Assembly: GCA_964430475.1 (NCBI GenBank) | Contig: CAYSEQ010000001.1 | Coordinates: 92,951-156,950, forward strand | Reading direction: 5' to 3' | DNA from: an uncultured Gammaproteobacteria bacterium | GTDB taxonomy: Bacteria; Patescibacteriota; Microgenomatia; UBA8517 | DNA: 64,000 nucleotides | Shown: positions 997 through 11,629 of the stretch, piece after piece | Numbering within the stretch: the stretch's first letter is position 1 | How the letters are laid out: each line of letters opens with the position of its first letter | Program-made: the position numbers and the translations under genes | Notes under the pieces: model-generated | What the model was told of the DNA's origin: nothing | Seen by the model: the letters and a program-made list of their open reading frames with translations, nothing else | The model's database searches: none

Positions 997-2084
997 AGGC
1001 CAAGCATAACTTCTTCCAAAAGACGATAGTGTCTCTCCCAACTAAATTTTTTAGATACATATTCTCTAGCATTCCTCCCCATATCTTCGGCTAATTTAGG
1101 ATTTTCTAAAAGATAAGTGATTTTCTCTGAAAATTCTTTCGGGTCTCTTTTCAATAAAAATCCTGTTTTTCCATGAAGTACTGTCTCCTTATACCCACCT
1201 TCTTTAACTGCTAATACCGGAGTTTCGCATGCCATTGACTCAATTGCTATCAAACCAAATGGTTCATTAATGCTTGTACACAAGGTTAAAATACTCTCTG
1301 AATATTTTTTTGCTAATTTTCTATCTGTTCTTTTTTTGGAAAAGCTTACTACTTCAAATTCAAAGTCAATATTTTTTGGTACAAATGACAAGGCTTTTTC
1401 AATTAAGTCATAGCCATCAATTTTATGCCTTTCACCCACAAACAATATTTTATTTTTTTTCTTTGAAATCTTTTTAAAAACTTTTAAATCAACCCCCGGA
1501 TAACACACGCTAGCTTCTCTTTTATAAAATCTTTTAACCTTTTTACTAACATATTCTGAATTAGTAAGAATAATACTTGCTTTTTGGGCATTAACTTTAT
1601 CAATCTTCTTTCTATATTTTCTTGTTAGATTCTCATATAAGGTTTTATAAAATACAACCTTTTCATTAAAACGCAATTCCTTTTCATAGGCGATACGCAA
1701 AAGTTCGTGACAATAGTATACTGTTGGCAAATTTATATATCTTAACAAAAATGGTGCCTGCGTAAATTTATCAGGATGTATAAGACAAACATCGTAAGGT
1801 TTTGAATTGATTTTTTTGGCAATATCGTAGTGAATTTTTCTTAAAGAAAAAAAATTTTTCCAGTCACGGTAAATTCTGTTAATAAAAATTGGCAAATTAT
1901 TGAAAAGATTTATCTTAAAGATGTAAACATTGTTAGCAAAAAATCGTATATCTAGAAAATCTTTGTCTTCGGAGTCCATCTCGTACAAATCAATATTATG
2001 TTTAAGACTTAAACGCCTAACCTCTTCAAACAAAACTCTTTTGGCTCCACCCGCTGGAAGATTGTGGTAGACTGCAATATTCAT
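975..2084 (-). CDS. Family 4 glycosyltransferase (GT-B fold)
   Basis: The C-terminal EPFGLIAIESMACETPVLAVKEGGYKETV motif is typical of GT4 (E-x7-E region). Confidence 0.75.
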   Translation of the reverse strand: MNIAVYHNLPAGGAKRVLFEEVRRLSLKHNIDLYEMDSEDKDFLDIRFFANNVYIFKINLFNNLPIFINRIYRDWKNFFSLRKIHYDIAKKINSKPYDVCLIHPDKFTQAPFLLRYINLPTVYYCHELLRIAYEKELRFNEKVVFYKTLYENLTRKYRKKIDKVNAQKASIILTNSEYVSKKVKRFYKREASVCYPGVDLKVFKKISKKKNKILFVGERHKIDGYDLIEKALSFVPKNIDFEFEVVSFSKKRTDRKLAKKYSESILTLCTSINEPFGLIAIESMACETPVLAVKEGGYKETVLHGKTGFLLKRDPKEFSEKITYLLENPKLAEDMGRNAREYVSKKFSWERHYRLLEEVMLGLCQKSKK

Positions 2085-2920
2085 CTTTTTTCCAAAATTA
2101 CAATAAAATCATTACCCCAAAATACATTAAATGGAAAGTACTTGCTTAGGGGATAAAGGTAAACAATAAAATTAAAAAGTAAATCTTTCCAGCTCAATAC
2201 AGGTTTGTTAACTGTTACATTAGTAGAAAAAATTTTTCCGCAAAAACCGTTTCTAGAAAAAAGTTTCTTTAACGAAAAGTAAGTAGATTCCGAAACATGC
2301 ATTATCTTATGAGAACTACTCCGAATCTCTGATGGAGGCGATAGATTGGGATACGAATTACCGGTTAATAAATTGTTTAGTTTAACCAAGACTGTGCTTA
2401 AAGGATAACACCAAAATCTATAAGTAAGATCGTTAAAAATTTTGTTAGGAGAAGTATGAACTATTACCCTACCATCACCTTTTAAGATCTTCTTTATCTT
2501 CTCAAATACAATTATTTGCTCTTCGGGATAAAGATGTTCGAGTACTTCTACAAGAAAAATTACATCAAAACTTCCTTTAGGAAAACTTAACTTCTTAGCA
2601 TCTCTGACCATAAATTTAACCTTAGATTGAACACTTGGACTGTAATGCTTTTTTGCTTTATTTGCTAATTTTATTGCAGCCTTTGAGTAATCTACACCTA
2701 TTGCTCTTTTTGCTCCGTTTTCAGCTGCCCAAAACACCAATTCCCCTCTTCCACAACCGATATCCAGAACGCTAAGATTTTTTAAATTAGGAATTTCTTT
2801 TACTATTCTCGAAAGACGGGGTTCCAGAATTTTACCGAAACTTTTTTTAAACTCGCGATAACCAGTACAATCAGTTAAATAATATTTTTCGTCGTAATAT
2901 TTAGGATCCACTCTTCTCAT
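2081..2920 (-). CDS. Class I SAM-dependent methyltransferase
   Basis: VLDIGCGRGELVFWAAENGAKRAIGVDYS is the glycine-rich SAM-binding motif I. It overlaps its neighbours by 4 nt and 20 nt, suggesting operon coupling. Confidence 0.7.
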   Translation of the reverse strand: MRRVDPKYYDEKYYLTDCTGYREFKKSFGKILEPRLSRIVKEIPNLKNLSVLDIGCGRGELVFWAAENGAKRAIGVDYSKAAIKLANKAKKHYSPSVQSKVKFMVRDAKKLSFPKGSFDVIFLVEVLEHLYPEEQIIVFEKIKKILKGDGRVIVHTSPNKIFNDLTYRFWCYPLSTVLVKLNNLLTGNSYPNLSPPSEIRSSSHKIMHVSESTYFSLKKLFSRNGFCGKIFSTNVTVNKPVLSWKDLLFNFIVYLYPLSKYFPFNVFWGNDFIVILEKR

Positions 2921-4133
2921 ATAACTCTTTCCTCAAAAAGTAAAAAATTAAAGGTAACGCTACCAATGAGCCAATTAAGCAAGAAACACCTGCACCAATC
3001 AATCCAAACTTAATAACCATTGGTAATATTGCTAGAAAAAGTCCAAGCGTACTTACAAAGGTCACTAATGTCACATATCCTTGTTTCTTAAGAGACAAGA
3101 AAAGCACCGATGAAGTTCCTGAAATCGCCCGTAGTATTCCAAAAAGCGAAAGGACTCTAATCACTGGAACAACATCTACCCACTTTGTCCCTAATATAAG
3201 AAATGTAAACGGCCTAGCAAATAAGATTAGAAAAAGCCCAAAAACCACTGTCGGTAGCGAAACAAAAAAAACAACTTTGAAGTATGCTTTCTTTAATCTC
3301 TCCAGATCGTCTGAAATTTTGGAATATACAGGGAATACAACCTTGCTCACTATTTCCCCACCTTCAGAAATAGGAAGAGTGGAAATTTTATAAGCGACCT
3401 GGTAAAAACCTAATGAGCCACTTCCCATGAATTTACCGACCACTATATCGTCAAGATGTTGAAATAGATACTCAAATATGCTGGCAAGGGTTACCCACTT
3501 TCCTCTGTGAATGATTATTTTTAACTTAATAGGTTCAATTTTAAATCTTGGTCGAGGTTTAATAAACATCCACGACCAGATTAATTCCAGAATAGTTCCT
3601 GCAAGCATACCAAGGACCAGACTTTCTGCACTCTTCAAAATAAAAGCACTAATCAGAGTTACCAAACCGTCAAGGATAAAAATATTTGATCTTAACCAAA
3701 ATTCTTTATTAAACCAAAGTTCTTTTTGTAAATTTACTATGCTTGGATTTATAAACCCCCTCAAAAAAGGTATACTACTTATCAATAGGATTAACTTATA
3801 AGAATTGGGTTCATTAAAAAAAGAGGAAATTATTTTTGCAAATATAACTAAAATTATTGTTATTAAAATTCCTCTCGCTATTGAAACAATCCAGGCTGAA
3901 TCCAAATATTTTTTTACATTTGCCTTCTCCTGTATCAAAAATACATTTATCCCGGTATCAGTAAGAATTTCCAAAAAGGCAAGGGCTAAAGAAGCAATAC
4001 CAAATATACCGAATTCTTTTGGACCTAGAATTCTAGCGAGTATCGCGATCTTTAAAAATGCAATTAGACGGGTTATGGATCTTAAACTCCCCATCCACAA
4101 GATGCCTTTTATTGTACTTTTGGTGTAGCCCAC
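2901..4133 (-). CDS. Wzx-like oligosaccharide flippase (polysaccharide biosynthesis protein, MOP superfamily)
   Basis: A 410-aa polytopic membrane protein. The N-terminus LRSITRLIAFLKIAILARILGPKEFGIFGIASLA matches the Wzx/PST-family signature. Confidence 0.65.
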   Translation of the reverse strand: MGYTKSTIKGILWMGSLRSITRLIAFLKIAILARILGPKEFGIFGIASLALAFLEILTDTGINVFLIQEKANVKKYLDSAWIVSIARGILITIILVIFAKIISSFFNEPNSYKLILLISSIPFLRGFINPSIVNLQKELWFNKEFWLRSNIFILDGLVTLISAFILKSAESLVLGMLAGTILELIWSWMFIKPRPRFKIEPIKLKIIIHRGKWVTLASIFEYLFQHLDDIVVGKFMGSGSLGFYQVAYKISTLPISEGGEIVSKVVFPVYSKISDDLERLKKAYFKVVFFVSLPTVVFGLFLILFARPFTFLILGTKWVDVVPVIRVLSLFGILRAISGTSSVLFLSLKKQGYVTLVTFVSTLGLFLAILPMVIKFGLIGAGVSCLIGSLVALPLIFYFLRKELYEKSGS

Positions 4134-4170: not shown

Positions 4171-5157
4171 TTATAAAAATATTAATTTTCTCAAACCATA
4201 AATCTGCATCTTCATCATTAAAGAAGATAATAAACCTACCATAAATCCTGCCATGACACAAAAGTCTGCAATTATTTGAACGACTACTCCCCAAATCCCT
4301 GAAACCAAACTTGCCGTTTTTACATATACCTTTCGGAAAGCGTAATAGAAATAAGAAGCTAAAAGCCCAATAATTAGTGCTAAATTACCCTTAAATAGGA
4401 AGATTGTTATTAAAATGCCTACTAAATATCGTGAAACTACCAAAAGAGCTTTAATATTGTGCGACTTAAATCCTTTTAAGGGGTGCAACCAAATTCCAGA
4501 CTCAGCATCTCCCTTGGCGTACTTAAAAATTTTCTTTGAAAATTCCGACAACGAAGAAGGCATTTTCCAGTCAACTTGTGCATCTTTAACCCTTGCGTAC
4601 CTTAAACCGCTTACAACGCATTTGTAATTAAAAACTGTATCTTCAGCAGTATCTTTTAGCCTCTCAGGAAATCCGCCCACTTTTCTCCACGCCTCCTTCT
4701 TAAAAGCAATCGATCTTGTTGCAGGTAAATAATTTCTACCAAAACTTTTAGCGTCCGTACCTAAAAATACTGTAAAGGCTTTCTCTAGGGAATTAAAAGC
4801 AAGCATCCTATAAAATCCTGCTGAAATATCGACATTTTTCGATTTTAGGGGACCAACAATTTTTTTAAGCCAATCTTTTTTGGGAACACATCCTGCGTCG
4901 GTGATTGCTATTATCTCATTTTTAGACAAGGCAATTCCTAAGTTCCTTCCTTCTGCACGACTACACTTTTTGACGATAAGTTTTATTCTTTTACTCTTTT
5001 TTTGATAATCTTTAATAATTTCAATTGTATTATCCGTCGAACAGGCATCAACAATAACTATCTCATCAGGTTTTTTTGACTGAAGAAGTAAGGCATCAAG
5101 CAAACTAGATATAAATCTTCCTTCATTCAGCGTCGTTATGCAAACCGATACTTTCAT
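4171..5157 (-). CDS. Family 2 glycosyltransferase with C-terminal transmembrane helices (GtrB/polyprenol-phosphate glycosyltransferase-like architecture)
   Basis: The N-terminus MKVSVCITTLNEGRFISSLLDALLLQSKKPDEIVIVDACSTDNT is a GT2 DxD region. The C-terminal ~90 aa are hydrophobic. Confidence 0.65.
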   Translation of the reverse strand: MKVSVCITTLNEGRFISSLLDALLLQSKKPDEIVIVDACSTDNTIEIIKDYQKKSKRIKLIVKKCSRAEGRNLGIALSKNEIIAITDAGCVPKKDWLKKIVGPLKSKNVDISAGFYRMLAFNSLEKAFTVFLGTDAKSFGRNYLPATRSIAFKKEAWRKVGGFPERLKDTAEDTVFNYKCVVSGLRYARVKDAQVDWKMPSSLSEFSKKIFKYAKGDAESGIWLHPLKGFKSHNIKALLVVSRYLVGILITIFLFKGNLALIIGLLASYFYYAFRKVYVKTASLVSGIWGVVVQIIADFCVMAGFMVGLLSSLMMKMQIYGLRKLIFL

Positions 5158-5165
5158 TAAAAACT

Positions 5166-6185
5166 CTAATTAAGCCATAAGTTTAAATATTTTTTTTCTA
5201 ATTCATCCCAAGTCTGAGTTCTTACCCATTTAAATGCTTTATTAGTTAATTCCAGATATTTTTTGTGATAAATTTCATAAAATTTAATTATCTTAACAAT
5301 TTTTTTTGGATCTTTGAAGCAAAAAATATACTCTTTAAAAGGAGTGAGAAAGTATATATCTTTTTCTATTGGTAAGCCGTAAGAAACTAATACCAAACAA
5401 TGATGTGCAAAAGCCTCAAGAATTGTAAGGTATCCTGATGCAAAAACGTATCGAGCTTTGGAATAGAGTTTTTCAGGGTTTTTCCAACCGTGAACTTTTC
5501 CATAAATTTCGCAAGCTTCCCGTAGTTCACCATCTCCACAAAATTCAACCCTTATACCATATTTTTGGAAAAAATTATGATAACGCTTCAATATCTTCAA
5601 AAAAATTCGTAATGTTGTTTTTTTGTCTAGTCTTCCCACATAAATTATGAGTTTTTCTTTCTTTTTTGATTTAAATCTAGGAATGTTCACCCCTCCAAGA
5701 ACCACTTCATCTGCCTTAATTCCGAAATATTTCTTTATATAACTCCCCACAGCTATCGTTGCATTTGAAAGTCTAAACGCCAACCTTTTTTGAAATATAC
5801 TCCTGATCGGTATCGGAAATTCTCCTTCCCAACCGTGAAAAGTTGTATAGATTTTCTTCCTTAAAAACAGAAATCTAAAAGGTAAATACCATATAAAAAC
5901 ATCGTGTATGTGTACTATGTCACTTTTTTTGATTAATTGAATATTTTTTAAAATCCAAGCCCAAGTATATAAAAGGCCTATTAATTTTAATTTAGGTTGA
6001 TTGAAGTAAATTACTGAAATTCTACCGCTGACTATATCTTTATCTTTAAGATGGGTGTCAAATTTAGTGGTCAGTACAGTAATCTCATGGCCTTTTTTAA
6101 TCAATCTTTTTGAAATTTCTAAAACATGTTTTTCAACTCCTCCCACATGAGGATAAAAAAGCCGAGTCATAAATAAAATTCTCAT
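5166..6185 (-). CDS. Family 4 glycosyltransferase
   Basis: MRILFMTRLFYPHVGGVEKHVLEISKRLIKKGHEITVLT is a GT4 N-terminal Rossmann motif. Confidence 0.6.
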   Translation of the reverse strand: MRILFMTRLFYPHVGGVEKHVLEISKRLIKKGHEITVLTTKFDTHLKDKDIVSGRISVIYFNQPKLKLIGLLYTWAWILKNIQLIKKSDIVHIHDVFIWYLPFRFLFLRKKIYTTFHGWEGEFPIPIRSIFQKRLAFRLSNATIAVGSYIKKYFGIKADEVVLGGVNIPRFKSKKKEKLIIYVGRLDKKTTLRIFLKILKRYHNFFQKYGIRVEFCGDGELREACEIYGKVHGWKNPEKLYSKARYVFASGYLTILEAFAHHCLVLVSYGLPIEKDIYFLTPFKEYIFCFKDPKKIVKIIKFYEIYHKKYLELTNKAFKWVRTQTWDELEKKYLNLWLN

Positions 6186-8643: not shown

Positions 8644-9711
8644 ATGAGATTTCTACTTTTAATTTTCATTATATTATTGTCTTTCCTCATCATAAATAGG
8701 TTCCTACGAGTCCAAAAGGGAAAGATTCAACTGGATCGAGGTAGTTTACAAATCAGTATACAACGAGATTCCACTCAAACCCCTAGTGAAACAGTTTCAA
8801 AATCTAACCCGTTTGGGTTAATGATCCCTACTGTCTCAATTTCTGCCGATAAAAAAGTGGAAATAGCTAAAGAACTTGGAGTAACCTATTATAGACCCAA
8901 CGATATTAATCCGGTAAACATTGAGTGTTTGGAATGCGAGGAGGCAAAAAAAGCAGGTTTAAAACTTGTTCTTACAGTAAGAAATAACAAAGGCGCCCGT
9001 ACACCCTCGGAACCACCTCGAGATATTGAAGAATACAGAAATTTTGTATCAGAGGTTCTTGATAGATATAAGCCCTTCTTACTAGTTGTTGAAAATGAAC
9101 AGAACTCAGGACTTTTTTATACAGGAAGTGCGGAAGAATATTTAGAACAACTAAAAATAGCTTGTGAAGTAGCACACTCCAAAGGTTATAAGTGCACTGA
9201 TGGAGGTTTAGTAGGTTCTTTAGTCATATTACTTACTGCGGATTCCTACGAACAGGAAGGGAATCCTTCATATGCAGAAGAGTATCTGAAAAAGGCTCTT
9301 GACCCTAAAGATTATTCAAGGTTAATAAATTCCAAAAACACGCAAATCTACCGTAAGCAAATAGAGTTTGGAAGGAAAGTGCTTGCAGGCTACAAAAACG
9401 CGGGCGCAGATTATGTAAATTTTCATTGGTATTCGAGTTCTTCAGAGGCTTTTGTGGAAGCTGTAAATTTCTTTAAAAAAGCAACAGGACTTCCTGCATT
9501 AACAAATGAAATGGGACAGCAAGAAAATGTAGACCCTTCTCAGGTAACCGCAATAATGAAAAAGGTCACAGAATTAAATCTTCCCGTGGCTATTTGGTTT
9601 AGTGCAGATATACCTCTTCTAGGACAAGCAAGGGGGTTGGTAAATCCAGATGGAACTTTAAGAGAAAACGGAATTGCTTTTAAAAATTTTATTCAAGAAA
9701 ATTTCAAATAA
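8644..9711 (+). CDS. Secreted TIM-barrel glycoside-hydrolase-like protein (GH5-like catalytic pair)
   Basis: A signal peptide MRFLLLIFIILLSFLIINRFL. VVENEQN is a candidate acid/base NE(P) motif and ALTNEMGQ a candidate nucleophile Glu, about 130 aa apart as in clan GH-A. Confidence 0.4.
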   Translation: MRFLLLIFIILLSFLIINRFLRVQKGKIQLDRGSLQISIQRDSTQTPSETVSKSNPFGLMIPTVSISADKKVEIAKELGVTYYRPNDINPVNIECLECEEAKKAGLKLVLTVRNNKGARTPSEPPRDIEEYRNFVSEVLDRYKPFLLVVENEQNSGLFYTGSAEEYLEQLKIACEVAHSKGYKCTDGGLVGSLVILLTADSYEQEGNPSYAEEYLKKALDPKDYSRLINSKNTQIYRKQIEFGRKVLAGYKNAGADYVNFHWYSSSSEAFVEAVNFFKKATGLPALTNEMGQQENVDPSQVTAIMKKVTELNLPVAIWFSADIPLLGQARGLVNPDGTLRENGIAFKNFIQENFK

Positions 9712-9807
9712 CAAGTTGTCCTACACAACAAGAATCAATCTAAAACTTCTTCGTTAGCATATAAACTAAAACTGAAAAGTTAATTTAATTTTCAATTTAT
9801 TTAAAGT

Positions 9808-9932
9808 GGGGCGGATGAGACTTGCACTCATCATGCTAGCATTCCACGGCTGGATTTGAGACCATTACCCGCAGACTTTCATACAAGTAGGAGTACCCAC
9901 TTGTGACGGCAATCTAATGCCGTTTCGCCCCG
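9808..9932. ncRNA. Candidate structured small RNA of unknown class (GC-rich, multi-hairpin). Strand undetermined.
   Basis: A 125-nt GC-rich island between two convergent gene ends. The 5' GGGGCG pairs with the 3' CGCCCC. Internal hairpins are GAUGAG/CUCAUC (loop ACUUGCA), ACAAGU/ACUUGU, and ACGGCA/UGCCGU (loop AUCUAA). Confidence 0.35.
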
Positions 9933-9988
9933 TTGACATTAGAAAAAAACTATAAGCAAGCTTAATTATAACTCTAGTATTAAGTGTT

Positions 9989-10318
9989 TTAAGGAGGAAC
10001 AATAACGGAATATTTCACACACCTTAGATATCGATGAATCTCAATGTCAAAAATCTTAACTTCTTCTTCAACAAGACGTTTCTCCCCTATTTTAGGTGGA
10101 CAAGTTGCTTCAGGATCCAGCGAGACACCTTTTTCTTGGGATAGATTTCCCTTTGGATCTATATAAGTGCCTTCCCAGACAGTAAGTCTTTGAGGATTTT
10201 CAGCACTACAACCATTAATAAGGCCAACAAGCAATAATCCACTTAAGACTTTTTTAAGTGATTCGGTTCGATTATTGGTTTTTTCTCTTTCTAACATTTT
10301 GCTGAAATTTATTTTCAA
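9989..10318 (-). CDS. Small putative lipoprotein or secreted protein
   Basis: A 109-aa ORF. Its N-terminal hydrophobic segment ends in LINGC-SA (lipobox-like). Confidence 0.3.
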   Translation of the reverse strand: MKINFSKMLEREKTNNRTESLKKVLSGLLLVGLINGCSAENPQRLTVWEGTYIDPKGNLSQEKGVSLDPEATCPPKIGEKRLVEEEVKIFDIEIHRYLRCVKYSVIVPP

Positions 10319-10365
10319 AAGGCTTTAAAAATTTTTAAACTCTAACTTATGTAAAAATAAAATAG

Positions 10366-10439
10366 TGGGCACTGTTGGACTTGAACCAACGACCTCTGCA
10401 ATGTGAGTGCAGCGCTCTTGCCAACTGAGCTAAGTGCCC
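10366..10439 (-). tRNA. tRNA-Val (anticodon CAC)
   Basis: The reverse complement folds as a canonical cloverleaf: GGGCACT acceptor, GCTC/GAGC D-stem, anticodon stem CTGCA/TGCAG with loop CTCACAT, T-arm GTTGG-TTCAAGT-CCAAC and discriminator A. 74 nt, no encoded CCA. Confidence 0.85.
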
Positions 10440-10558: not shown

Positions 10559-11629
10559 ATGAACAATAACTTCCCTCTTGGGCTTTCCTTTGATGATGTT
10601 TTACTTATACCTCAATACTCCGAAATTGATTCACGTTCCGAAATAGATCTCTCAGTAAAACTTTCCAAAAGGTTATTGTTGAAAATCCCATTAATAAGTG
10701 CAAATATGAGTGATGTAACTGGAGTTAAAATGGCTGTTGCACTTGGAAAACTTGGTGGATTAGGTGTTATACCAAGATTTATACCAATAGACAAGGAGGC
10801 GGATATGGTATCAAAAGTTAAGAAAGAAAGAGTACTTGTTGGCGCTTCAGTGGGTTGTAAAGACTGGAAAGAAAGAGGGACTGCTTTAGTCTCTGCAGGC
10901 GCTGACGCTTTGTTCTTGGATGTTGCTCATGGACATTTAAAAAAAGCCTTAGAAGTCACAAGACTCTTGAAACAAGAGTTTGGCGAAAATGTAGATATAG
11001 TTAGTGGCAATGTAGCCACAAAAGAAGCCGCAGAAGATTTATTTTCAAACGGCGCCGATGTTGTGAAGGTAGGTGTCGGACCGGGATCAATTTGCACGAC
11101 AAGAATTGTTACAGGATGCGGTGTACCCCAAATTACAGCGATTTTAGAATGCTTTAAATCTGCAAAAAAATTTAAAAAAACCTTAATTGCAGATGGGGGA
11201 ACAAAAAACTCCGGTGATATCGTCAAGGCACTGGCAGCTGGTGCTCACGCAGTGATGATTGGCAACCAATTTGCAGGAACAGACGAGGCTAGCGGAAGAT
11301 TAATAAAAAGGAATGGAATTCTTTATAAAATGTATAACGCCTCCACATCTTACTCAGAGAAGAAAAATCACCTAAAAACTTCTGGAATGAAGTTGTCATC
11401 TAATTACATAAAACAAATTGAAGGCGTAGAATCGCTTGTGCCCTACAAAGGACCTTTAAAAGAAGTAGTTGAAAGAATGTTAGCTAACATCCGTTCAGGC
11501 CTTAGCTACTCGGGGTCAAAAAACATTGAAGAACTTCATTCAAAAGCACGTTTCTTAAAAATCACCCTCAATGGATTCAGAGAAAGCCTGCCACATGATG
11601 TAATCGTTCAGGAAAATCATTCTGGCTAA
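10559..11629 (+). CDS. IMP dehydrogenase/GMP reductase family protein (lacks the CBS subdomain)
   Basis: The N-terminus GLSFDDVLLIPQYSEI, the catalytic-Cys loop VGVGPGSICTTR and IADGG are all present. At 356 aa there is no room for the CBS pair. Confidence 0.8.
   Translation: MNNNFPLGLSFDDVLLIPQYSEIDSRSEIDLSVKLSKRLLLKIPLISANMSDVTGVKMAVALGKLGGLGVIPRFIPIDKEADMVSKVKKERVLVGASVGCKDWKERGTALVSAGADALFLDVAHGHLKKALEVTRLLKQEFGENVDIVSGNVATKEAAEDLFSNGADVVKVGVGPGSICTTRIVTGCGVPQITAILECFKSAKKFKKTLIADGGTKNSGDIVKALAAGAHAVMIGNQFAGTDEASGRLIKRNGILYKMYNASTSYSEKKNHLKTSGMKLSSNYIKQIEGVESLVPYKGPLKEVVERMLANIRSGLSYSGSKNIEELHSKARFLKITLNGFRESLPHDVIVQENHSG

Follow-up and report, generated by a model that had tools for sequence, protein, structure and literature searches.

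A GC-rich element in a convergent gap

The window analyzed here is a stretch of 64,000 nucleotides (nt) from an uncultured bacterium (contig CAYSEQ010000001.1, positions 92,951 to 156,950), and our subject is a 125-nt element within it, referred to below as the RNA unit, that lies in the gap between two convergent genes. The gap is bounded by the gene for a 355-residue protein, which ends at 9711 on the plus strand, and by a small open reading frame (ORF), ORF109, which ends at 9989 on the minus strand (Table 1). The initial annotation had described a GC-rich block in an AT-rich gap, free of ORFs and about 430 nt from a tRNA-Val gene, with pairing ends and three clean 6-bp hairpins, and had left the strand open. 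Each of these features was recovered. The GC fraction is 0.52 over 9807-9932 compared with 0.23-0.26 in the flanking 100-nt windows, stop codons interrupt all six frames across the gap, and tRNA-Val lies 433 nt from the RNA unit. On the plus strand GGGGCG occupies 9808-9813 and CGCCCC 9926-9931, and the hairpin stems ACGGCA/TGCCGT, ACAAGT/ACTTGT, and GATGAG/CTCATC are all present. The limits given for the block, 9808-9932, were off by one base; the unit runs from 9807 to 9931, and T9807 reads as A on the minus strand. Only two noncoding stretches in the window reach at least 50% GC over 80 nt, the RNA unit and the tRNA-Val gene, and no second copy of the unit was found in the window by blastn or with either of the covariance models (R1 and R2) described below.

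TABLE 1. Features of the locus in window coordinates. RNA position i corresponds to window coordinate 9932-i.
Feature	Coordinates	Strand	Description
Whole RNA unit	9807..9931	-	125 nt; P1-P5 around a five-helix junction; unpaired discriminator-like A at 9807
P1, 5' strand	9926..9931	-	RNA 1-6; GGGGCG; acceptor-like stem; pairs with 9808-9813
AA linker	9924-9925	-	before P2
P2	9906..9923	-	RNA 9-26; D-arm-like hairpin; 6-bp stem ACGGCA/UGCCGU; loop UUAGAU (9912-9917)
P3	9883..9904	-	RNA 28-49; at the anticodon-arm position; 9-bp hairpin; apical loop UACU (9892-9895)
J3/4 (AUGAAAG) and P4	9843..9882	-	RNA 50-89; corresponds to a long variable arm
J4/5 (AUGCUAGCAU)	9833..9842	-	RNA 90-99; single-stranded segment holding the palindrome GCUAGC
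P5	9814..9832	-	RNA 100-118; T-arm-like hairpin; 6-bp stem GAUGAG/CUCAUC; 7-nt loop UGCAAGU (9820-9826)
P1, 3' strand	9808..9813	-	RNA 119-124; CGCCCC; immediately after the T arm
Promoter-like site	9965..9992	-	TTAAAA-16 nt-TATAAT; 10 of 12 consensus positions, best in the region; consensus match only
ORF109	9989..10318	-	orphan small protein with lipoprotein-type signal (LINGC); ends 57 nt before the RNA
tRNA-Val(CAC)	10365..10439	-	Rfam and ARAGORN; canonical host tRNA; 3' DNA variable among relatives

Fold and strand of the RNA unit

Read 5' to 3' on the minus strand, the unit consists of GGGGCG (P1), AA, P2, C, P3, AUGAAAG, P4, AUGCUAGCAU, P5, CGCCCC (P1), and A, with P4 forming a 7-bp stem (UCUGCGG/CCGUGGA) around an irregular 19-nt loop that begins GUAAU. 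The minimum free energy of this strand was -52.8 kcal/mol (z = -4.38, with none of 200 shuffles as good), and that of the plus strand was -44.2 kcal/mol (z = -3.03). G-U pairs occur in P1, P2, P3 (G34-U43), and P4 (59-87 and 60-86), and they form solely on the minus strand; because they would be C-A mismatches on the other strand, we take the minus strand to be the one transcribed. The G-U pairs, the folding energy, and the orientation of all of the homologues described below point to the minus strand as the one to which the RNA unit belongs.

Homologues and compensatory changes

As no close relatives exist, homologues were sought by degenerate-pattern scans. A metagenome pattern in which GGGG, the T-loop core, and CCCCA were fixed and the stems were left purine/pyrimidine-free returned a 135-nt RNA on contig L023 (Ga0137384_10035526) and, in identical form, on L024 (WNGQ01061385.1). 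Outside the fixed positions, the window and L023 RNAs share GGGGCGAA, the loop UUAGAU, GUCAC, GAAAG.CU, UAAU, and AGCCGU.G.A.GCUAGCAUG, and R1, a single-sequence model that scores the window RNA itself at 157.7 bits, gave L023 84 bits (E = 1e-16). An ORF starts 13 nt past the L023 RNA, and three proteins homologous to its product were found by protein lookup. The 10-kb JGI contig L026 carries a third, more divergent RNA of 156 nt, which begins 4 nt past the stop codon of the ORF for one of these proteins. A model built from the three members (R2) scored the window RNA at 125.7, L023/L024 at 148.2, and L026 at 128.3 bits, with a next-best score of no more than 28 bits for anything else in the ∼1.5 Mb of loci fetched. 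The family described by R2 comprises GGGGNGAA, a 6-bp P2 with a UU(N)AGNU loop, C, a variable P3 with a UACN apex, GAAAGYCU, P4, a 6-bp T arm with the loop UGCAAGU, YGCCCC, and A, and the window RNA has every one of these parts.

When the three sequences were aligned, 97.3% of the cells of the 25 pairs of P1, P2, P4, and P5 were paired, compared with 40-54% when the partners were slid by 1-3 columns. Eight of the 25 pairs are changed on both sides (four in P2, two in P4, and two in P5), against 0-1 in the slid controls, and none of 500 shuffles reached the observed pairing percentage or covariation score. RNAalifold separately gave the same helices together with the base of P3, where an invariant C27-G52 pair closes the arm. 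The initial annotation had proposed a structured RNA, to be abandoned if related sequences showed neither conservation nor covariation; the homologues carry compensatory changes, which give solid qualitative support to the fold from three sequences, short of statistical proof.

The individual helices differ in how they vary. In P1, four of the six pairs are invariant, one G-C pair becomes G-U, and one is a mismatch in L026. The P2 loop is the same in L023 (UUAGAU) and reads UUCAGCU in L026. P3 ranges in length over 22, 39, and ∼55 nt, yet the UACN apex is retained, as UACG on a 3-bp stem in L023 and L026. Beyond the two P4 pairs altered on both sides, two more are altered on one side, and the GAAAGYCU sequence that spans J3/4 and P4 is invariant in the three members, as is the P5 loop UGCAAGU. 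J4/5 differs by 2 nt in L023 and is dissimilar in L026. A pseudoknot between the P2 loop and J4/5 (UUAG with CUAG) is feasible in the window and L023 RNAs but not in L026 and was not adopted.

Signals around two of the copies suggest that the RNA has its own means of expression. In the window the promoter-like site ends 33 nt upstream of G1, overlapping the ORF109 stop codon, and in L023 a strong 11-bp terminator lies upstream, its end ∼10 nt from the RNA; the sequence after it, TGTTATAAA, looks by eye like an extended -10 element.

Wider scans did not enlarge the family. An exact-pattern scan of GTDB genomes gave two chance matches that lacked a T stem, scans of viral sequences with family-specific 5' and 3' patterns gave nothing or chance matches, and blastn of the window, L023, and L026 elements against phages and plasmids gave chance matches only. 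A broader "superfamily" of RNAs with a GGGGCG acceptor and a UGCAAGU loop (L007/L022, L030/L033, L042, L049, and L050) was considered and rejected, the shared features having been forced by the search pattern; a scan free of the acceptor sequence found UGCAAGU T loops in ordinary phage tRNAs with all sorts of acceptor stems, and the RNAs of the rejected grouping score at most 28 bits with R2.

tRNA-like anatomy and the elbow signature

The initial annotation had left the class of the RNA unknown and had overlooked a T arm set on an acceptor-like stem, a discriminator-like A, and the elbow signatures of a D loop and a T loop. The connectivity is that of a class II tRNA: acceptor stem, 2-nt linker, D arm, 1 nt, anticodon arm, variable arm, T arm, and discriminator. 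P1 and P5 contribute 6 + 6 bp with no base between them, which gives a 12-bp acceptor/T stack, and an A follows the stem in all three members. The P5 loop keeps the T-loop features G53-C61, U54, C56, R57, and A58 but has G rather than U at position 55, and the D-like loop of P2 has AG rather than GG. Together these two loops, UUAGAU and UGCAAGU, combine A18:G55 with G19:C56, a signature seen in a subclass of phage tRNAs that is described next. The host tRNA-Val(CAC) is canonical, with a GG D loop and the T loop UUCAAGU, and this contrast with the A18:G55 pair of the RNA unit supports both the formation of an elbow and an origin in a phage or other mobile element.

The subclass emerged from a scan of viral sequences for GGTGCAAGTCC-N10-ACCA, which gave at least 120 loci; among the matches listed, the T stem is a perfect 5 bp in 107 of 121, and numerous isotypes are represented by ordinary tRNAs. 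We then counted elbow sequences in 684 unique ARAGORN tRNAs from the fetched viral loci, which had been chosen by their G55 loop, the U55 controls being drawn from the same loci. The D loop contains AG without GG in 103 of 124 G55 tRNAs (GG in 21), and GG in 414 of 444 U55 tRNAs (AG without GG in 21), an association with a Fisher odds ratio of 97 (p = 8e-69). The D loop of the G55 tRNAs often contains UAG(A/U). This looks like a subclass of phage tRNAs in which the G18:U55 contact is swapped for A18:G55 and G19:C56 is kept. G55 T loops (UGCAAGU, UGCAAAU, UGCGAUU, and others) were seen in phage tRNAs of all isotypes at viral loci L029-L171 (for example, L052-L131).

An obvious question raised by this anatomy is whether the RNA unit could be a true phage-type tRNA gene that decodes, with a large insertion or intron that is removed or tolerated. 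Insertions of 52-94 nt in the anticodon loop do occur among tRNAs on viral contigs (L030 and ARAGORN intron calls), and ARAGORN, when its thresholds were lowered to 70-80% and introns were allowed, called all three members tRNAs. The P3 apex reads UAC in all three and CUUACGG in L023 and L026, resembling the anticodon loop of Val(UAC). However, the forced calls conflict on both the anticodon (Trp, Arg, and Phe) and the place of the intron, and decoding would call for a 5-bp stem and a 7-nt loop in which U33 and an anticodon can be read, an arrangement that no member has. Instead, the arm at this position is a hairpin of variable length, its conserved apex being a UACN tetraloop on a stem of 3-9 bp. 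P4 and the GAAAGYCU junction are conserved and covarying, which would be unexpected for an intron merely awaiting removal, and the Rfam tRNA model gave no match at E ≤ 10. Given the lack of a 7-nt anticodon loop and the disagreement among the forced calls, we conclude that the RNA unit as it stands is not a decoding tRNA, and we consider it unlikely that a decoding gene is interrupted here.

Comparison with G55-type phage tRNAs, especially those of class II (Leu, Ser, and Tyr), places the family close to them in one half of the molecule and apart from them in the other. Shared features are the 12-bp acceptor/T stack, the unpaired A, the 2-nt linker, the T loop UGCRANN with G53-C61, the AG instead of GG in the D loop, and the five helices of class II. 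The family differs in having neither a 7-nt anticodon loop nor a consistent anticodon, and also in its 6-bp D-like stem, its length of 125-156 nt, and its extra arm of 33-45 nt with large conserved single-stranded flanks; it also lacks an encoded CCA and escapes detection by the Rfam tRNA model and default ARAGORN.

Comparison with known RNA families

The initial annotation had also suggested that the RNA matches no known class, and searches with covariance models bore this out. With Rfam 15 at the gathering score, the only match in the 64-kb window was tRNA-Val, and at E ≤ 10 the region 9650-10050 gave only five low-scoring matches (E = 3.3-8), all to unrelated families and attributable to chance. 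ARAGORN with default settings likewise found tRNA-Val alone in the window, with no tRNA or transfer-messenger RNA (tmRNA) at the RNA unit. Neither at the gathering score nor at E ≤ 10 on 9650-10050 was there a covariance-model match to signal recognition particle (SRP) RNA, 6S RNA, RNase P RNA, 5S rRNA, or known ribozymes. Inspection by eye for SRP domain IV, the 5S loop E, a P4-like GAAAGUC of RNase P RNA, a tmRNA tag, a retron, an integron attC site, and a miniature inverted-repeat transposable element found the features absent or coincidental.

Several systems resemble the RNA unit in part. The tRNA-like domain of tmRNA also has an acceptor that starts GGGGC, a T arm that abuts the acceptor, and a large insert between the halves, but the RNA unit has G3-C in place of the G3-U70 alanine identity pair, is 125 nt long rather than ∼350 nt, has no pseudoknots or tag frame, and has no ARAGORN or Rfam tmRNA match, and tmRNA was rejected as a candidate. 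Like tRNA-Sec and allo-tRNAs, the RNA unit combines a 6-bp D stem and a long extra arm with an altered partition of the acceptor/T stack, 6 + 6 here; in those tRNAs the partition is 8 + 5 or 9/4. They differ in that their anticodon loop is normal, their stack is 13 bp long, and they measure ∼90-95 nt in all, and the RNA unit has no match to the tRNA-Sec model. An acceptor/T-arm/elbow half dissociated from decoding is also found in mascRNA/menRNA, the tRNA-like module of YrlA, and viral 3' tRNA-like structures, on which RNase P and the CCA-adding enzyme would be expected to act. Their sequences are unrelated to the RNA unit and their settings are different (eukaryotic nuclei, Ro-associated bacterial RNAs, and RNA viruses, respectively); none has a P4 arm or a GAAAGYCU junction, YrlA ends in a Ro-binding stem instead of an acceptor stem, and none is matched in Rfam by the RNA unit.

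A riboswitch or other ligand-sensing leader would be a different kind of structured RNA. The hairpin GGUGCAAGUCC, with its T-loop sequence, is present also in cobalamin riboswitches (the adenosylcobalamin sequence of RNA-Puzzles), and in L023 an ORF starts 13 nt downstream. This T-loop hairpin is nevertheless the sole likeness. There is no B12 box, no Rfam riboswitch match was obtained for the window gap at E ≤ 10 or for the homologues, and in the window and L026 the RNA lies between convergent genes, so that none follows it on its own strand. We regard such a function as highly improbable.

Genomic context and possible mobility

The genes around the locus encode IMPDH, a signal peptidase, ParB, L27, L21, FtsW, and IleRS, with best matches in Patescibacteria; the closest IMPDH among 5.8 billion proteins is only 70% identical. 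The contig occurs in SRR11582147. In L001 (GCA_900175145.1), the closest of the syntenic relatives fetched through their IMPDH matches, gene order is kept on both sides, and the 221 nt between the gene for a 352-residue protein and IMPDH contain tRNA-Val only. The RNA unit is missing from the syntenic site of the fetched relatives, and R1 gave no match anywhere in their loci. In place of window 9712-10364, the DNA 3' of tRNA-Val holds nothing in L001 (4780-4834), two unrelated small ORFs in L015 (1509-2252), and other ORFs in L017 (∼950-2826). With its flanking genes conserved, the spot 3' of tRNA-Val behaves like an insertion hotspot. ORF109 is absent from L001, L015, and L017, its homology search returned only itself, and neither Pfam nor PHROG has a family that matches it; ORF109 and the RNA unit probably lie in one and the same inserted segment. 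Because the DNA of the relatives differs at this spot beside the tRNA gene, we treat the segment of ∼620 nt that holds ORF109 and the RNA as accessory DNA. No att-like direct repeats were found flanking it.

The same comparison bears on the suggestion in the initial annotation that this could be a Y-RNA-like or lineage-specific small regulatory RNA of the Patescibacteria lineage. A GC-rich structured island with paired ends would suit such an RNA, and bacterial Y RNAs contain a tRNA-like module. The distribution is not lineage-specific: the nearest relatives lack the RNA at the syntenic position, where the closest has only tRNA-Val, and its homologues lie on unrelated soil contigs of 43-45% GC. 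The likeness to Y RNA also fails on structure, since the termini of Y RNAs form a Ro-binding stem and those of the RNA unit an acceptor-like stem, and there is no match to the Rfam Y RNA or YrlA families. No Ro/TROVE-type gene was noticed among the ORFs at 5-15 kb, where no search aimed at TROVE was made. We find either version of this proposal scarcely credible.

A position 3' of a tRNA gene also invites an explanation at the level of DNA, namely that the element imitates a tRNA gene as a site of recombination or attachment, or that its hairpins belong to a single-strand origin. Many integrases use the dyad symmetry of tRNA T arms, the stretch 3' of tRNA-Val is variable, and L024 has a second, short T-arm/acceptor module. 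However, compensatory changes maintain four helices over 125-156 nt, whereas DNA bound by a protein would be expected to conserve sequence and not pairing, and all of the G-U pairs fall on one strand. There are no direct repeats around the inserted segment, and the RNA unit retains its whole 5' half, for which an attP site copied from the 3' end of a tRNA has no need. A function of this kind is thus very unlikely.

The homologues lie next to genes of mobile-element type. In L023 the RNA is beside a gene for a TniB/MuB-like ATPase (AAA_22, 3e-18; PHROG "DNA transposition protein," 4e-18), and in L026 a Replic_Relax gene is convergent on it. That these contexts are mobile elements is a reasonable but limited inference. 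Every locus has a same-strand ORF beside the RNA, the one in the window being unrelated to those of the other two. The protein family next to the homologues (P0122-P0125; 128 residues) has an AlphaFold model with a predicted local distance difference test score of 76 and no match to a PDB fold at E < 0.1, and no homologue of it is encoded in the window. In L024 tRNA-like modules stand on both sides of the 128-residue ORF, the full-length RNA first and then, at 2409-2462, 2 nt past the ORF, a mini acceptor/T-arm helix (GGGGGUG ... CUGG-UGCAAGU-CCAG-A-CGCCCCC-A).

This arrangement leads to the possibility that the RNA is a cis element on the messenger RNA (mRNA) of the neighboring small ORF, either as a tRNA-like punctuation mark or stabilizer at its 3' end or as a 5' leader. 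The spacing fits such a role, with the RNA 57 nt past ORF109 in the window, 4 nt past an ORF of the P0125 family in L026, and 13 nt before the P0122 ORF in L024, where the mini helix follows that ORF as well. On the other hand, ORF109 has no relationship to the P0122-P0125 family, the RNA is missing from two of the four loci that encode a protein of that family, and the order of RNA and ORF varies between loci. In addition, the window has its promoter-like site in the interval from ORF109 to the RNA, and a terminator immediately precedes the RNA in L023. The cis role also overlaps with the independent-gene reading given below, in that release of a tRNA-like RNA by RNase P would cut the mRNA too. 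On balance we judge a cis element to be rather unlikely.

A proposed tRNA-shaped RNA of mobile elements

The RNA unit is a real, conserved, structured RNA of the minus strand, has tRNA-like connectivity and a phage-type loop signature, lies in accessory DNA, and belongs to a family that is absent from Rfam. We favor, with slightly better than even confidence, the reading that the segment from 9931 to 9807 is an independent minus-strand RNA gene and that its family is a previously uncatalogued one of tRNA-shaped, non-decoding RNAs that travel on mobile elements. In such an RNA the P2 and P5 loops would form an elbow and give an L shape, and tRNA enzymes would mature the transcript by an RNase P cut at G1, 3' trimming, and CCA addition. 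The product would occupy a protein that recognizes the acceptor/T-arm/elbow half of tRNA. This protein might, for example, be a factor of the host or of a rival element that targets or binds tRNA, with the RNA serving as its decoy or ligand. The window copy, together with the orphan ORF109, may be the remnant of an element inserted into the variable DNA 3' of tRNA-Val.

Several points weigh against this reading. The family has three distinct full-length members only, and in one of them, L026, P1 contains a G-G mismatch. The D-like hairpin, with 6 bp in its stem and 6 nt in its loop, is unusual for a tRNA, and because neither the Rfam tRNA model (RF00005, no match at E ≤ 10 on 9650-10050) nor default ARAGORN recognizes the unit, the likeness to tRNA rests on a reading of its anatomy. 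Contact at the elbow, cleavage by RNase P, addition of CCA, and any role as a decoy are all predictions. The contexts described as mobile are short metagenome contigs, typed by one or two genes each. Finally, in both L023 and L026 an ORF of a single protein family directly adjoins the RNA, which precedes the ORF in one locus and follows it in the other, and a cis role in mRNA processing could explain this instead.

A more specific proposal, which we offer tentatively and which is doubtful as a whole, is that the RNA is a dedicated non-decoding tRNA mimic of phages or mobile elements, one that keeps the A18:G55 acceptor/T-arm/elbow face, adds a conserved extra domain, is matured by RNase P and CCA addition, and serves as a decoy or a carrier, with the window copy as a domesticated or decaying remnant within a chromosome of Patescibacteria. 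As a decoy it might absorb or blind tRNA-directed host immunity such as toxins that modify or cleave acceptor ends, and as a carrier it might be charged for a reaction outside the ribosome; the two variants share the same tentative standing.

If the family is confirmed, a tRNA-shaped RNA that lacks an anticodon would be added to the repertoire of bacterial mobile elements, at a time when work on such elements concerns phage tRNAs that counter tRNA-targeting defense. Its compact conserved core and defined model (R2) make it amenable to study. The A18:G55 swap may account for a difference between some phage tRNAs and those of the host at a position that many enzymes read. For annotation, GC-rich islands in AT-rich gaps of Patescibacteria can be foreign RNA genes that standard tools overlook.

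Other observations

Between the TniB-like module of L023 and an ORF of 161 residues lies a region of ∼1.8 kb (∼1170-3009, equivalent to L024 1-1326) with only short, overlapping, implausible ORFs on either strand and no Rfam match; it may hold another noncoding feature or degraded genes. The IMPDH of the window (10559-11629) was missed by its own homology search, although gene calls on L005, a Logan contig with this locus, include it; the miss is probably a quirk of how the search gathers its candidates and not biology.

The viral loci fetched in the course of the tRNA scans contain a number of unusual RNAs. On L030, two adjacent viral tRNAs (1024-1146 and 1155-1282; 123 and 128 nt; Rfam scores of 54.6 and 49.2 bits) are lengthened by insertions of at least 50 nt in the anticodon arm or loop, and ARAGORN tRNAs with 90-94-nt "introns" occur at other viral loci. 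The 65% GC viral contig L022 has at 4949-5077 (L007 83-211) a 128-nt tRNA-like RNA with an encoded ACCA end and a UGCAAGU T loop that neither ARAGORN nor Rfam matches. Directly after it, at 5084-5195, is a structure closed by ACACGACGAG/CUCGUCGUGU with two canonical T-arm hairpins inside, and both structures stand upstream of a gene read as a UDG-DNA polymerase fusion. An 81-nt "tRNA" on L049 (2254-2334) has an anticodon loop of ∼13 nt and lies beside two amber-suppressor tRNAs. On L042, from a phage of 30% GC, a tRNA-like RNA of ∼70 nt with the loop AGCGAUU (minus strand, ending at 4695) is upstream of a gene read as a small terminase subunit. Odd RNAs on viral contigs also include 79-nt tRNA-like forms with "anticodon" loops of 12-14 nt (among them L030 10259-10337) and a minihelix of ∼44 nt that ends in ACCA (L050 8880-8919 is among these odd RNAs).

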